Shown: positions 24,270-33,515 of the stretch, piece after piece
How the letters are laid out: every line of letters begins with the position of its first letter
Position numbering within the stretch: the first letter of the stretch is position 1
Source: a virus
Taxonomy: Duplodnaviria > Caudoviricetes
Strand: one strand, 5' to 3'
DNA length: 56,887 bases
IMG/VR virus record: IMGVR_UViG_3300033153_012363
Span: 1-56,887 of that record
The notes under the pieces: model-generated
Told to the model about the DNA's origin: nothing
The model's input: only the letters and a program-made list of their open reading frames with translations
The model's database searches: none
Program-made: the position numbers and the translations under genes

Positions 24270-24459
24270 GTATCTTATAAAAAAGTATAACAATACAGAC
24301 TTTATGTTTATGCAATATTGTCCCAATGGGAGAGCAAGGTTTACTACTAGTAAAAGAAGAGCAAAAAAATATGACTGTGAAGAAGCTATAAAAGAAACTC
24401 AAAAACTAAATGAATTAGAATATAATGTATTTTTGGAGAAAATAGATGTTAAAACTTAA
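24256..24459 (+). CDS. hypothetical protein
   Basis: 67 aa bridging adjacent genes. Confidence 0.5.
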   Translation: MKSNKYLIKKYNNTDFMFMQYCPNGRARFTTSKRRAKKYDCEEAIKETQKLNELEYNVFLEKIDVKT

Positions 24460-25054
24460 TATAGGATGTGGAATTCGACAGCGAAAAGGATTTACAAATG
24501 TAGATAAATATGTTACTAAAGTACTTATTAGACAACTTATAAAAAAAGGTAATTTACTTGCTTTAATAGAAAAAGGAAGTAAATATGTTCAAGCTGATTG
24601 GAGGGATTTACCTTTTGAAGATAATTCTGTTGATTACATTGAATCTATTGATACTATTGAACATTTTGGTTTTCGAGAAGTTAATACAGTGATAAAAGAA
24701 ACAAAACGAGTAATGAAGCCAGGAAGTATGGCGAGAATCCAAACTATAGATTTTAATGCTTTGGTTGAGCGTTGGTATAAAGAAATCACTAAACCAAAGA
24801 TTCCTCAATTAGAAGCTTATATGGATTTAATGGAGTCTATTTATGGTAACCAGAATAATGAAGGACAGTTTCATAAAATGCCTTGGACACCTGCTTATGC
24901 GCATCAATTATTTATAAAAGAGTACGAATTCTCAAGTATTAATATATTGATATTTCCAAGATTTTGTGGTAATGCACCACCGATGGAAACAGTTGATTGG
25001 GATTTTTCAAAAGTTTTTAGAAATCAAGCAATGATTATGGAGATAACAAAATGA
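24446..25054 (+). CDS. class I SAM-dependent methyltransferase
   Basis: LNIGCG, NVD, LPFEDNSVDYI, IEHF, RVMKPG. Confidence 0.85.
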   Translation: MLKLNIGCGIRQRKGFTNVDKYVTKVLIRQLIKKGNLLALIEKGSKYVQADWRDLPFEDNSVDYIESIDTIEHFGFREVNTVIKETKRVMKPGSMARIQTIDFNALVERWYKEITKPKIPQLEAYMDLMESIYGNQNNEGQFHKMPWTPAYAHQLFIKEYEFSSINILIFPRFCGNAPPMETVDWDFSKVFRNQAMIMEITK

Positions 25055-25683
25055 ACATTAAAGATTTTCCAAGTTACTATACAGAAGAACATCTTCCCAA
25101 TATGTGGAATTATATTTTTCAGCGTCAAGAAGAATTAGCAAAGAAATATAATGTTATTGAAGGTAAACAGGGTCTTCGTTGGGTTATTGAATCACCTGTT
25201 GATTTAGACGATGCTAAAGGACAACTTCAATTAAAAGATTATGCTTGGCGAATTGTTGAAGAGGTTGGAGAATCCCTCGAGTCTTACTTTGTTACCTTAG
25301 ATGAAGTAGTTCATGCTCAAGAAGAGTTAGCAGACGGATTACATTTTATAGTAGAATTAGCATTAGCAATTGGATTAAAGGCTTCTGATATTAAAGAGGT
25401 TTTTAAGTTAGAAGATTTTAATGAAGGACTTAAGCATGAACTATTTAAAATGTATACTGCAAATTTTATTATGCATCTTGGCTCGACTATAAATTGTTTA
25501 AAGTTAAAGCCTTGGAAACAAACTCATGAAAAAACAGATAAAGAAGTCTTTATCAAAAAATTTAAAATAACATTTAAACATTATATAGCTCTTATGTTGT
25601 GTATAATGGAACCTATTGATATTTTAAATCTTTATTTTAGTAAATCAGATGTCAATAAATTTAGGATTAGGAGTAATTACTAG
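25051..25683 (+). CDS. dimeric all-alpha dUTPase/dCTPase
   Basis: VEEVGE, EELADGLHF, KPWK, KSDVNKFRIRSNY. Confidence 0.8.
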   Translation: MNIKDFPSYYTEEHLPNMWNYIFQRQEELAKKYNVIEGKQGLRWVIESPVDLDDAKGQLQLKDYAWRIVEEVGESLESYFVTLDEVVHAQEELADGLHFIVELALAIGLKASDIKEVFKLEDFNEGLKHELFKMYTANFIMHLGSTINCLKLKPWKQTHEKTDKEVFIKKFKITFKHYIALMLCIMEPIDILNLYFSKSDVNKFRIRSNY

Positions 25684-25688
25684 TAATT

Positions 25689-30667: not shown

Positions 30668-31631
30668 GATTGGTGGTTTATTTTGTGGTGCTGGTTTTCC
30701 TCTTCTTGCCGCTCAGTGGGCTGATCTTCATTTAGAGTGGGGAATTGAACCTCGACCTTATTTTAATATTAAAACATTTCGATATAACTTTAAAGGAGTT
30801 TTATACTCAAAAGAATTAAATGCTTTTTATTCTAATCCCGTTGACGTGATTTGGATGAGTCCCTCTTGTGGTGAATTTTCTTCAGCTACCCGAAGTGGAA
30901 AGAATGTAATCAGTATGCGAAATAAACTGTTTGAAGACTTTGAATATGTTAGAGCAGTTATGCAGGTTAAGAAAAGAAGACCAAAAATCTTTGTGTTAGA
31001 AAATTTACCAAGCGTTAAAAACTTTGTTCAATTTGAATCTACTCCAGCTGGGTTTGAGTTAAAGCATCAACTTACACATGAATCTATAGAACTTTATGAT
31101 TTTTATATTGAAGAGCATACGATCACTCCAACAGAAGTAGATATTGCTCAAGTACGTGAACGCCTATTTACAATAGGTTCATTATATCCACATCAATTTA
31201 TGTTAGACCCACCATTGGAGGATAAAAGAAATGAACTCTCAACTAGAGCTGTTTTCGAAGATCTCGACGACAGAAGAGAAAAAGGAGAAATTCTGTACAA
31301 TGATAACAAGCCCAATCACTCTGACGAAAAAATTGAAAAAATGTCCAGGGTTCGGCCAGGCGAAGGGCTCTACGGGGGAATTAATAATAAACGACTGGAC
31401 CCAGAAAAACCTTGTCCCGTCATTATGTCTTCCCAAACGAAGTATATCCATCCCTGGGAAGACAGGTTATATACCGCAAGAGAAGCTGCCTCTCTCATGG
31501 GGGTGCCTAGATCCTTTAGGTTTTTTGGAAGAGAAAACGCATGTTTCGACCAAATAGGGAAAGGGATTGTGCCTCAAGTTGGGGAATTTATTTTAAAGCA
31601 AATTAAAACCTATTTGGAACAACAGAACTAA
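30660..31631 (+). CDS. atypical C5-cytosine DNA methyltransferase-fold enzyme 2
   Basis: motif I FCGAG, IV SPSCG, VI ENL, VIII QVRER, IX REAASLMGVP, X QIGKGI. Confidence 0.9.
   Translation: MIKIGGLFCGAGFPLLAAQWADLHLEWGIEPRPYFNIKTFRYNFKGVLYSKELNAFYSNPVDVIWMSPSCGEFSSATRSGKNVISMRNKLFEDFEYVRAVMQVKKRRPKIFVLENLPSVKNFVQFESTPAGFELKHQLTHESIELYDFYIEEHTITPTEVDIAQVRERLFTIGSLYPHQFMLDPPLEDKRNELSTRAVFEDLDDRREKGEILYNDNKPNHSDEKIEKMSRVRPGEGLYGGINNKRLDPEKPCPVIMSSQTKYIHPWEDRLYTAREAASLMGVPRSFRFFGRENACFDQIGKGIVPQVGEFILKQIKTYLEQQN
31231..31557 (+). CDS. candidate nested +1-frame gene inside methyltransferase 2
   Basis: GGAGG at 31217-31221, 9 nt before ATG; starts MNSQLELF; host-frame GC3 raised over the overlap. 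Confidence 0.35.
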   Translation: MNSQLELFSKISTTEEKKEKFCTMITSPITLTKKLKKCPGFGQAKGSTGELIINDWTQKNLVPSLCLPKRSISIPGKTGYIPQEKLPLSWGCLDPLGFLEEKTHVSTK

Positions 31632-31675
31632 TGATGTATTATATTGTTATAATTAACAAATAATAGTCTGTATTA

Positions 31676-33073
31676 ATGAATACCTATAACATACTAAAAC
31701 AAGTTGATATTGTTGAAATTCTCTCTAATTACATTAAAATTAATGATACCTCAGATCCAGAAGACAATCGTGCATTATGCCCATTTCATGCAGATAAGAA
31801 TCCAAGTCTTTCAATAAACACCATTAAACAGGTTTATTATTGCTTTGGGTGTAAAGCTGGAGGTAATGCTTTAACATTTGTAAAAGATATAGAAAATATT
31901 TCTAGTGATGAGGCTCTTCAGATTGTAGCCAATATTGCTGGTATAAAAACTGATATTGGAGATCTTGAGATATTAACTAAAGTATCAGAGTATTATGGGG
32001 GAAGACTAGAAGAAGTATCAAACTATATACAAGAAAGAAACCTTCAATTTGGGGTTGCTAGTTATTTAGAATTAGGATACTCCGGAGATGATGCTTTTGA
32101 ATTAGAACACCAATTTCCAACCAATAAAGATAAATTAATTAAGTTTGGATTATTACAACAAAAATATAAAGATACTCCACAGGAATTGAGTTTTTCTACT
32201 TTTACAAATAGATTAATGTTTCCTATTAGAAATCATTTAGGAGTTGTAGGATTTGCAGGAAGAACTTTGGTTAATCACGATATTAAGTATATAAATTGTA
32301 TTGATAACCAATACTTCAAACGTCGTACGACTCTCTATGGTCTCCATAAAGCAAAGGATAATATTCAATTATTGAATTTTGCAATTTTAGTTGAAGGGTT
32401 ATTGGATGTTGGTAGGATGTGGGAATATAAACATTTTAACACAATAGCAAGTCTCGGAACAGGTATAACAGAAGAACAAATATCTCTATTAAAAAGATAT
32501 ACAAATAAAGTTAAATTACTTTACGATGGAGATGAGGCTGGGTATAAAGCAAGTATTAAAGCAACTTTACTTTTTATTGTTTATGGTTTTGAAGTTAAAA
32601 CTTTCTTTTTCCAAAAAGATGAGGATCCAGATTCATATTTACTTAAACATAAATCTTTTGAAAATGTATCAATGATTCCAGGTGAAGAGGTTTTAAAAGC
32701 CCATATTAGTAAAGAGGATTTTATTAAAGCAACCCAAAAAAATCCTGACTTAGTTGATGATAAATACTTTAGACTATATAATTTGGAAAAAAGAAATGTA
32801 GTTAGTGAACCTATTAAGACATTAAAACCTAATAGAAAAATAGAATCTACACCAACATTTCATCTTACTTTATTAATTGATGCATTTCCAGAATTAGAAA
32901 AGCATCTTTCAAAATCGCATTTAGATGCAATCAGTAAAGCTCATGAAAATCCAAATATATCAAAACTAATCTTTCATAAAAATCCTTATCAATATGTTAC
33001 ACAACCTGAGGAAGTTTTAATTCAAATTCTTGAACAATGGAAAGAACCAAATGAAAAAGTTACCAAGACCTGA
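31676..33073 (+). CDS. dnaG: DNA primase
   Basis: CPFH..CFGC Zn finger, RLMFPI, GFAGR, KYIN, TOPRIM VEGLLD / YDGDEAG. Confidence 0.95.
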   Translation: MNTYNILKQVDIVEILSNYIKINDTSDPEDNRALCPFHADKNPSLSINTIKQVYYCFGCKAGGNALTFVKDIENISSDEALQIVANIAGIKTDIGDLEILTKVSEYYGGRLEEVSNYIQERNLQFGVASYLELGYSGDDAFELEHQFPTNKDKLIKFGLLQQKYKDTPQELSFSTFTNRLMFPIRNHLGVVGFAGRTLVNHDIKYINCIDNQYFKRRTTLYGLHKAKDNIQLLNFAILVEGLLDVGRMWEYKHFNTIASLGTGITEEQISLLKRYTNKVKLLYDGDEAGYKASIKATLLFIVYGFEVKTFFFQKDEDPDSYLLKHKSFENVSMIPGEEVLKAHISKEDFIKATQKNPDLVDDKYFRLYNLEKRNVVSEPIKTLKPNRKIESTPTFHLTLLIDAFPELEKHLSKSHLDAISKAHENPNISKLIFHKNPYQYVTQPEEVLIQILEQWKEPNEKVTKT

Positions 33074-33515
33074 ATATTATATGAAATTAGCAGAGTTAAC
33101 TGCTTTGAGAGGTACATGCAATAGACTACATGTAGGTTGTGTTTTAGTAGATAGTAAAACAAAAAGAATAGCTGCAGTAGGTTATAATTCTTCTCACTCA
33201 AGAACGGCTCATTGTGATGTACACGGTTGTTTATTGTATGAAGGGCACTGTATTAGAACTCTTCATGCCGAACAAGCAGCAATTATTAATCTTGAACGCA
33301 AATATGATTCTTTAGATGCTTATATAACGCATGAACCTTGTGCAAATTGTTATAAGTTATTAACAGCAGCAAATGTAAAAATGATTAAATGTCTTCATGA
33401 GTATCCAAATCCTGCAAGGAAACTTCTTGTTAAAGTAATAAAAGTTCCTGTTACTTTAATGAAATTCGCAGATGTTAGAATGAAAAAATTAACTATAAAA
33501 GATTATGGAAATTAA
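33051..33515 (+). CDS. dCMP deaminase
   Basis: TCNRLHVG, GYN, HAEQAAI, PCANC. Confidence 0.9.
   Translation: MKKLPRPEYYMKLAELTALRGTCNRLHVGCVLVDSKTKRIAAVGYNSSHSRTAHCDVHGCLLYEGHCIRTLHAEQAAIINLERKYDSLDAYITHEPCANCYKLLTAANVKMIKCLHEYPNPARKLLVKVIKVPVTLMKFADVRMKKLTIKDYGN

Follow-up and report, generated by a model that had tools for sequence, protein, structure and literature searches.

The 56,887-nucleotide IMG/VR virus record IMGVR_UViG_3300033153_012363 (Duplodnaviria; Caudoviricetes; approximately 30% G+C), referred to below as the window, carries in its replication operon two homologues of C5 DNA methyltransferases, C5a and C5b, in which the motif X asparagine is replaced by lysine. Judged by alignment and gene neighborhood, such lysine- or arginine-type ("GK-type") C5 enzymes are a distinct family that is tightly linked to thymidylate synthase (TS) homologues. 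Between C5a and C5b, the window also encodes a SpeD-like decarboxylase and a DUF3326 protein, which form an independent mobile pair and by analogy most likely make a polyamine. An initial annotation of the window had joined all of these genes in a single cytosine hypermodification pathway. What stands of that proposal is an uncharacterized cytosine gene set whose C5 enzymes are tied to TS homologues; the membership of SpeD and DUF3326 in it does not stand. We think it somewhat probable that the run consists of three units of separate history in one replication operon, namely, the cytosine module, a SpeD/DUF3326 cassette, and MT1, a protein with the class I S-adenosylmethionine (SAM)-dependent methyltransferase fold.

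C5 methyltransferase homologues with a basic residue at motif X

C5a and C5b are paralogues with 30% amino acid identity, and C5b is 65% identical to its homologue in the relative L142. Both are full length and have the motif IV Cys, the motif VI Glu, QxRxR, and the RE motif of C5 DNA methyltransferases. At motif X, where Asn304 of M.HhaI lines the SAM site, both have Lys instead of Asn. The Lys of C5a aligns to the motif X Asn of M.HaeIII, and the Lys of both enzymes aligns to Arg350 of SpCmoX (sequence taken from Synechococcus phage S-B43, MN018232.1).

The initial annotation had singled out the GK-type enzymes as unusual, and the homologues bear this out. In a search of 5.8 billion proteins, motif X of the 28 closest homologues (E <= 3.5e-34) reads Lys in 23 and Arg in 4, the remaining sequence being unreadable, so that a basic residue is present in 27 of 28 and Lys and Arg interchange within the C5a/C5b family. 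Among the next 10 C5 homologues, Asn was found in eight and Lys in one, with one unreadable.

A scan with the C5 alignment yielded 77 viral C5 loci, which were sorted by their motif X residue; the contigs compared here are fragments, and the flanks of loci were limited to 8 to 10 kb. A TS1- or TS2-like gene accompanies the C5 gene in 20 of the 22 Lys/Arg loci, in none of the 38 Asn loci, in the single Ser locus, and in 10 of the 16 loci that are divergent and unclassified at motif X (many with G-H-P-E-C). The contrast between 20/22 and 0/38 has a Fisher value of 5.5e-14, which overstates independence, as many Asn loci are near-identical and from one sample. In the two Lys/Arg loci without a TS-like gene, the sequence starts no more than 1.3 kb upstream of the C5 gene. 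The distance from the end of the TS2 gene to the start of the C5 gene is -63 to 0 nucleotides in 13 of the 22 Lys/Arg loci.

A second, more distant group of C5-like proteins (400 to 468 amino acids) has the motif IV sequence G-H-P-E/K/D-C and no readable motif X; its members (L181, L183, L185, L191, L196, L204, L206, L209, and L228) have TS homologues with Arg143 and Asp177 within a few kilobases. The C5b gene has a G+C fraction of 0.373 and a third-codon-position G+C (GC3) of 0.287, against approximately 0.29 to 0.31 and 0.15 to 0.22, respectively, for its neighbors.

A basic residue at this position has a characterized counterpart. The CmoA-CmoX-CmoY system of phage S-B43 is reported to produce 5-carboxymethylcytosine as well as the glycine amide of this base (Yang et al. 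Nat Commun 2025, PMC12783734; PDB 8YF3). In the account given there, Arg350 of CmoX replaces Asn304 of M.HhaI and binds the carboxymethyl group of carboxy-SAM, mirroring the engineered M.MpeI N374K, which gained carboxy-SAM use; SpCmoX R350N is inactive with either cofactor, and Escherichia coli CmoA alone can supply CmoX in vivo (PMC12783734). C5a and C5b might thus be CmoX-type DNA cytosine C5-carboxymethyltransferases that use the carboxy-SAM of a host CmoA on unreplaced or motif cytosines, with the TS homologues serving a separate nucleotide function. The Lys at the position of SpCmoX Arg350 and M.MpeI N374K, the interchange of Lys and Arg, and the reported sufficiency of E. coli CmoA speak for this explanation, but we consider it unlikely. 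CmoA (TIGR00740) was found neither in the window nor in its 12 relatives (five having a completeness of 90% or more), although the model detects the CmoA of S-B43 (E 2.5e-34), and phmmer with the S-B43 CmoA found none in the 77 C5 loci. An Asn-synthetase-like ligase of the CmoY type (PF00733) was likewise absent from these 13 records. The family is tied to TS homologues instead, and its motif reads SPSC or SPDC rather than SPPC. Of 14 control genomes, a single one had a TIGR00740 match above the cutoff, which suggests that carboxy-SAM may be missing from many hosts.

Thymidylate synthase homologues TS1 and TS2

The claim of the initial annotation that the window has an Asp-type TS homologue in the run and a second one elsewhere proved correct. 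In an alignment of TS1 with E. coli TS, PYD stands opposite PFN177, placing Asp at N177; Cys146 is retained, L143 is replaced by Arg (RRPC), and D169 is retained as Asp (TVDV). TS2, with a register taken from motifs, has Asp at N177 (RSCD...IND), Asp at D169 (SCDF), and Arg at L143. The TS1 family comprises 39 proteins among the 5.8 billion searched, and the Cys and Asp are invariant in all 39. All readable TS genes linked to Lys-type C5 genes, some rows having been read by eye, encode Arg three residues before the catalytic Cys, together with Asp169 and Asp177. The best solved relative of TS2 is the CMP hydroxymethylase MilA (E 4e-7); T4 dCMP hydroxymethylase was not among the solved-structure matches of TS1 (best 60 of 102) or TS2.

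According to Lee et al. (NAR 2026, PMC13326640), N177D in TS homologues indicates dCMP as the substrate, a hydrophobic residue at L143 a methyl product, Asp or Glu at L143 a hydroxymethyl product, and D169N a flavin-dependent 5-hydroxy-dCMP synthase. By these signatures, TS1 and TS2 are of the cytosine type, having both Cys146 and Asp at N177, and, with Asp rather than Asn at D169, are not of the 5-hydroxy type. Their Arg143 fits neither the T4-type dCMP hydroxymethylases (Asp or Glu) nor the Xp12-type dCMP methyltransferases and ThyA (bulky hydrophobic). Because position 143 is Arg, and neither Leu nor Asp/Glu, the product is unreadable from the known signatures, and our suggestion of a hydroxymethyl group or a derivative of it is a guess.

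The TS2 homologue of L153 (L153:11947-13893; 648 amino acids) has an intein inserted at its catalytic R-I-P-C motif; its residues 165 to 241 resemble Prp8 inteins, and a match to the PI-PkoII intein endonuclease (E 1.6e-7) covers residues 270 to 472.

These proteins could also be explained without any hypermodification. The TS homologues would then methylate dCMP, and either the dCMP deaminase would convert the resulting 5-methyl-dCMP to dTMP or 5-methylcytosine (5mC) would replace cytosine as in Xp12. C5a and C5b would be conventional anti-restriction methylases that use SAM and happen to have an unusual motif X. No ThyA- or ThyX-type dTMP synthase was found among the window genes scanned, the G+C content of the genome is 30%, the deaminase is conserved with the module, and C5a and C5b lack none of the C5 catalytic motifs except the motif X Asn. 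We nevertheless regard this explanation as rather unlikely. Position 143 holds Arg and not the bulky hydrophobic residue of methyl products, and ThyX lies beside TS1 in the relative L144, so that TS1 is not needed for dTMP there. The basic residue of the close homologues gives way to Asn in more distant ones, the inactivity of SpCmoX R350N as reported indicates that the motif X position matters, and two TS paralogues are kept across the lineage.

Relatives and the variable slot between C5a and C5b

Twelve IMG/VR viral contigs found by TS1 alignment served as relatives of the window. They share, in order, helicases, a 5'-3' exonuclease, the pyrophosphatase, TS1, the kinase, the C5 gene or genes, primase, deaminase, and PolA. 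All 12 retain the cytosine module. Conservation across the lineage extends to both TS homologues, to a single C5-like gene or a pair of them, and to the genes for pyrophosphatase, kinase, deaminase, primase, and PolA. TS2 immediately precedes the C5 gene in the smaller relatives, where the codons of the two genes often overlap; in the window it lies on the other arm. The genes of a T4-like prereplicative route that the initial annotation had recognized, encoding a member of the dCTPase family, a TS homologue of the cytosine type, and a kinase, are present and also conserved in relatives.

The SpeD-like and DUF3326 genes were absent from all 12 relatives by tblastn. C5a, a small open reading frame (ORF), and C5b are contiguous in L144, and in L142 and L143 an N6/N4 DNA methylase gene occupies the place that the pair has in the window. 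The slot thus takes varying cargo: the pair in the window, a methylase in L142/L143, and nothing in L144.

Cargo is found at other places in the operons of relatives as well. C5b is followed by a methyltransferase-GT1 fusion and a GT4-GT1 protein, a GT2-GT4 protein and ThyX are encoded ahead of TS1, and a gene resembling that of a pyrimidine dimer glycosylase stands between those of the kinase and C5a (L142:15702-19690, L153:7087-9726, L144:8959-10008, and L142:11395-12039).

SpeD-like decarboxylase and DUF3326 protein

The SpeD-like protein belongs to a DUF3326-linked clade. Ser74, His79, and Cys94 do not vary among 32 sequences of this family and correspond in the alignment to Ser63, His68, and Cys83 of Thermotoga maritima S-adenosylmethionine decarboxylase (AdoMetDC). 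We take the Ser to give rise to the pyruvoyl group and the aligned His and Cys to be catalytic. The family profile matches the T. maritima structure 1tlu (E 1.4e-4), a search of the Protein Data Bank with the window protein alone being uninformative. The class 1b AdoMetDC/SpeD fold and its Ser, His, and Cys are therefore present, whereas the Glu-Ser-His cleavage site is replaced by Gln-Ser-Asn in the window protein and by Thr-Ser-Asn/Ser in the clade. The match to TIGR03330 (29.5 bits) lies below the cutoff of 75.65, and the closest SpeD of a cultured phage has 27.6% identity. The DUF3326 protein was modeled with a predicted local distance difference test (pLDDT) value of 85. Foldseek of the model against the PDB returned no solved-fold match (best E 3.7e-3, template modeling [TM] score <0.3), an Atlas search excluding its own family gave no usable match, and tblastn found no homologue in cultured phages.

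An alignment of DUF3326 homologues recovered 60 viral loci, single-protein scans of IMG/VR with DUF3326 or PolA having found nothing. A SpeD-like gene adjoins DUF3326 in 55 of the 60, lying upstream in 54 and, by tblastn, within 50 nucleotides in 38. No third gene is conserved at these loci: the next clusters of an all-ORF clustering are antisense ORFs inside DUF3326, and, when a further 20 proteins of the window were searched against the 60 loci, none matched more than 2. The 110 flanking proteins of at least 150 amino acids include portal, terminase, capsid, chaperonin, and helicase proteins, among others. PF00145 occurs in 3 of the 47 viral DUF3326 records that were searched out of the 60 loci; the single C5 gene lying within a DUF3326 locus is of the canonical Asn type. 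Conversely, DUF3326 is found in 0 of the 77 C5 loci.

The pair has cellular contexts of its own. Among 80 bacterial and archaeal DUF3326 loci, the gene directly upstream encodes a SpeD-like protein in 29 and an approximately 400-amino-acid protein in 30. All eight of the latter that were tested are pyridoxal phosphate (PLP)-type partners with a best match to nspC (TIGR01047; 248 to 295 bits, full length, below the equivalog cutoff). Genes for GSP_synth (glutathionylspermidine-synthase-like), DUF350, and DUF4178 proteins lie near DUF3326 in cellular genomes and are in keeping with polyamine chemistry. The presence of two unrelated decarboxylases in one slot beside DUF3326 is the pattern of nonorthologous displacement and suggests a route of two steps, with DUF3326 providing the carboxylated compound on which the decarboxylase acts.

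Other features of cellular DUF3326 loci and homologues were observed. In 8 to 9 of the 80 cellular loci (L076, L081, L094, L098, L102, L109, L123, and L124), the pair is closely preceded by genes for an AAA_15/AAA_21 ATPase and an HNH nuclease, a Septu-like combination, and in 11 loci an AMP-binding enzyme follows DUF3326. Many cellular DUF3326 ORFs are approximately 458 amino acids long, with an N-terminal extension of approximately 90 amino acids that has no Pfam name (e.g., L104:998-2374), and the homologue P0064 is fused to acyl-carrier-protein domains (PF14573 and PF00550).

In the pathway that the initial annotation envisaged, the C5 enzymes would activate 5-hydroxymethylcytosine (5hmC) in DNA and couple it with an amine that SpeD and DUF3326 supply, so that the cytosine would come to carry a polyamine or another amine. 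An exchange of groups at 5hmC by C5 methyltransferases is known in vitro. The pair does lie between C5a and C5b with coding ends that overlap both neighbors, the C5 genes are linked to genes for TS homologues whose action should leave C5 blocked ahead of replication, and a polyamine-bearing thymine is described from phage phiW-14. This pathway is nonetheless improbable, given the absence of the pair from all 12 relatives and all 77 C5 loci, the scarcity of C5 genes in pair-bearing viral records (the one seen being Asn type), the heterogeneous neighbors of the pair and its conserved cellular contexts, and the methylase, or nothing, in the same slot of relatives. Of the gene neighborhood that the initial annotation had expected of GK-type C5 enzymes, the TS homologues were found and speD and DUF3326 were not.

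Layout of the gene run and other genes

Every long ORF from approximately 17.6 kb to approximately 47.6 kb of the window is on the plus strand. This region holds a replication and recombination set composed of DnaB-like and SF2 helicases, a 5'-3' exonuclease, a DnaG primase, PolA, a RecA-like protein, and an SbcCD-like pair, within which the cytosine and polyamine genes are embedded (Table 1). The co-oriented run in a replication operon that the initial annotation described was recovered in its ORFs, strand, coordinates, and family matches. Stop and start codons commonly overlap in the run (25051/25054, 26958/26961, 27227/27230, 27711/27718, 28967/28974, 29275/29278, and 30660/30667).

Table 1. 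Genes of the run and associated genes, with positions in the window
Feature	Position	Strand	Basis
TS2	10740..11477	-	ERVPC, RSCD, and IND motifs; second cytosine-type TS homologue
MT1, class I SAM-methyltransferase fold	24446..25054	+	Methyltransf_11 E 1.9e-10 (Pfam); weak UbiE/MenG-type NCBIfam matches
Dimeric-dUTPase-family pyrophosphatase, candidate dCTPase/dUTPase	25051..25683	+	dUTPase_2 E 1.6e-6, 28.9 bits (cutoff 22.9); phrog_12184 E 3.4e-23
TS1	26005..26961	+	Thymidylat_synt E 1.3e-12 (Pfam); gene model in the database has 304 aa, its start lying 14 codons downstream
Small ORF	26958..27230	+	phrog_25433 E 3.4e-11
Candidate dNMP kinase	27227..27718	+	Thymidylate_kin E 3.7e-4, below cutoff; phrog_761 E 8.4e-8; Walker A read from sequence
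C5a	27711..28703	+	PF00145 DNA_methylase E 1.9e-30; Lys type: SPSC, E-Y-L, QNRRR, RE, IGK
Small ORF between C5a and C5b	28967..29278	+	Homologues right after C5a homologue in L142/L143 and L144
SpeD-like pyruvoyl decarboxylase	29275..29646	+	AdoMet_dc PF02675 E 2.5e-13; DUF3326-linked clade
DUF3326 protein	29648..30667	+	PF11805 E 6.6e-76, 255.9 bits, positions 2-336 of 337
C5b	30660..31631	+	PF00145 E 1.6e-23; Lys type, IGK at motif X
Primase	31676	+	DnaG-type primase domains (Pfam)
dCMP deaminase	33030..33515	+	dCMP_cyt_deam_1 PF00383 E 1.7e-17
PolA	33516	+	DNA_pol_A E 8.8e-61 (Pfam)
GT9-like (GT-B) glycosyltransferase	46462..47580	+	Atlas placement; homologues match PF01075; homologue in relative G050

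Homologues of the pyrophosphatase were found in L142/L143, L144, L149, L152, and L153, and those of the candidate kinase in L142, L144, L145, and L148; the deaminase is kept downstream of the primase in L144, L147, L149, L152, and L153. The small ORF between C5a and C5b has no family match in Pfam or PHROG. MT1 has no tblastn match in the 12 relatives and does not match the CmoA model TIGR00740.

A GT9 glycosyltransferase at 46462, also part of the initial annotation, finds indirect support. The protein itself has no match in Pfam (E <= 0.001), PHROG, or NCBIfam, but in the Atlas it falls among clusters of viral PF01075 proteins (feature score, 0.97; TM, 0.80 to 0.87), and 26 of its 30 homologues match PF01075. 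The glycosyltransferases of the window and of its larger relatives come from different families (GT9-like, GT1, and GT2 with GT4), neither MT1 nor the GT9-like protein is similar to the methyltransferase-glycosyltransferase fusions of L142, and searches with the GT9-like and GT1 proteins found none in two complete relative genomes of approximately 68 kb. We take these enzymes as an optional decoration of the module.

The coding strand changes near 17.6 kb and again near 47.7 kb, in both cases together with the sign of the GC skew, and the right-hand arm opens with an ORF for 1,691 amino acids on the minus strand (47796-52871). Megablast of the 9-kb run found no match among cultured phages. The best cultured relatives of PolA are SPO1-like Bacillus phages, whose identity of approximately 26% is not informative on kinship. 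Promoter and terminator predictions did not exceed those in shuffled sequences (83 versus 100.8 and 7 versus 6.6, respectively). ORFs 35828 and 36825 were considered as paralogues and rejected on comparison.

A proposed composite explanation for the run

By analogy with T4, Xp12, and RB69, the pyrophosphatase of the cytosine module would return dCTP to dCMP, TS1 and/or TS2 would add a one-carbon-derived group to C5 of dCMP, the kinase would rephosphorylate the product, and PolA would incorporate it into DNA. The Lys-type C5a and C5b would then act on the DNA in the same pathway. In the second unit, DUF3326 may make a carboxylated amine intermediate, the role of a carboxy(nor)spermidine dehydrogenase, which the pyruvoyl enzyme would decarboxylate to a polyamine-like amine. 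This mobile two-gene unit would have landed in the variable slot between the small ORF and C5b, where it would be cotranscribed with the module and not be part of it. MT1 would be a lineage-specific extra gene.

The Lys or Arg of the C5 enzymes occupies the position by which CmoX holds the carboxylate of its donor. Taken with Arg143 of the TS homologues, this suggests that the C5 side chain or its donor carries a negative charge. A bolder form of this idea would have the Arg143/Asp177 TS homologues and the Lys/Arg C5 enzymes make a new cytosine derivative, the C5 enzyme acting without carboxy-SAM on the TS product in DNA, 5hmC or a similar base rather than plain cytosine, and adding or exchanging a carboxylate-bearing side chain, to which the polyamine of the pair would be attached in this phage as a cytosine counterpart of putrescinyl-thymine; we hold this to be very doubtful.

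Several points weigh against the composite explanation of three separate units. The chemistry of the module, including the modified base, is what we infer throughout, and its two halves fit no demonstrated scheme: if cytosine were fully replaced before replication, no free C5 would be left for a C5 transferase. Arg at L143 is without a characterized precedent in the literature examined, the dNMP kinase is, by its matches, the weakest assignment of the run, and, without CmoA or the ligase, the closest known Lys/Arg-type system is here deprived of its partners. The role of DUF3326 is drawn by analogy, its model having no solved-fold counterpart. Furthermore, the pair overlaps stop or start codons of its neighbors on both sides, which makes coexpression with C5a and C5b likely, and its G+C and GC3 contents show no sign of recent insertion; a local functional link to C5a and C5b may exist in this one phage. 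Finally, the CheckV completeness estimate for the window is 46%, so further genes may be missing.

Comparison with known systems

The cytosine module resembles the T4, Xp12, and RB69 systems in its dCTPase-family pyrophosphatase, TS homologue with Asp at N177, kinase, and dCMP deaminase, in the GT9-like (GT-B) glycosyltransferase gene of the window, and in the location of its modification genes in or near replication genes. It differs from them in having two TS paralogues, in their Arg143 (neither the Leu of methyl nor the Asp/Glu of hydroxymethyl enzymes) combined with a retained Asp169, and in including C5-methyltransferase-like genes.

Like CmoX, C5a and C5b are phage C5-methyltransferase homologues that have a basic residue for the motif X Asn, keep the Cys, Glu, and Arg motifs, and are encoded in a DNA modification operon. 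The search criteria for CmoX were Arg at the position of M.HhaI N304 and an SPPC motif (PMC12783734); C5a and C5b have Lys and SPSC, and their family has Lys, with Arg in a minority, and SPSC or SPDC, at 19 to 27% identity to CmoX. The constant partner of the C5a/C5b family is a cytosine-type TS homologue, and no CmoA, CmoY-type ligase, or ParB-like partner was seen. In S-B43 (MN018232.1), a 271-amino-acid ORF lies between CmoA and CmoX (L155:635-1450).

Phage homologues of SpeD with a shift to arginine or ornithine have been reported (Li et al., PNAS 2023, PMC9992855; JBC 2023, PMC10407285). The window protein is likewise a small phage-carried pyruvoyl enzyme of the class 1b AdoMetDC fold, but it belongs to a clade with Thr/Gln-Ser-Asn in place of Glu-Ser-His, and DUF3326 is not mentioned in the main text of either paper. 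The link to the NspC pathway is the nspC-like PLP decarboxylase that replaces the SpeD-like gene beside cellular DUF3326; the difference is the partner, DUF3326 and not a saccharopine-dehydrogenase-type enzyme or a spermidine synthase. A DUF3326 protein has been described as PavB of the pavABC pavettamine cluster (bioRxiv 10.64898/2026.06.12.731819), where the neighboring protein has a domain of the ornithine/lysine decarboxylase type and the cluster is required for a polyamine, an association that also accords with polyamine chemistry for DUF3326. As described, that cluster is bacterial, with a Rieske/racemase/decarboxylase fusion, a JmjC hydroxylase, and no SpeD-fold enzyme. We found no paper on the pairing of TS homologues with Lys-type C5 enzymes or of SpeD with DUF3326, the supplements of Yang 2025, Lee 2026, and Li 2023, which may list such proteins, lying outside the search.

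Phage DNA modifications decide escape from restriction, CRISPR, and other defenses and are a source of tools for sequencing and epigenetics. The pairing of a decarboxylase with DUF3326 would amount to an undescribed polyamine route, carried by phages and bacteria in large number, and would assign a function to DUF3326. The different cargo held by the C5a-C5b slot among relatives illustrates that a tight operon is not necessarily one pathway. The C5a/C5b family is a natural one with the same Asn-to-Lys change as the engineered carboxymethyltransferase, tied to an unusual TS homologue and not to a carboxy-SAM synthase, and this linkage points to cytosine chemistry beyond the current T4, Xp12, RB69, TET, and CmoX schemes.

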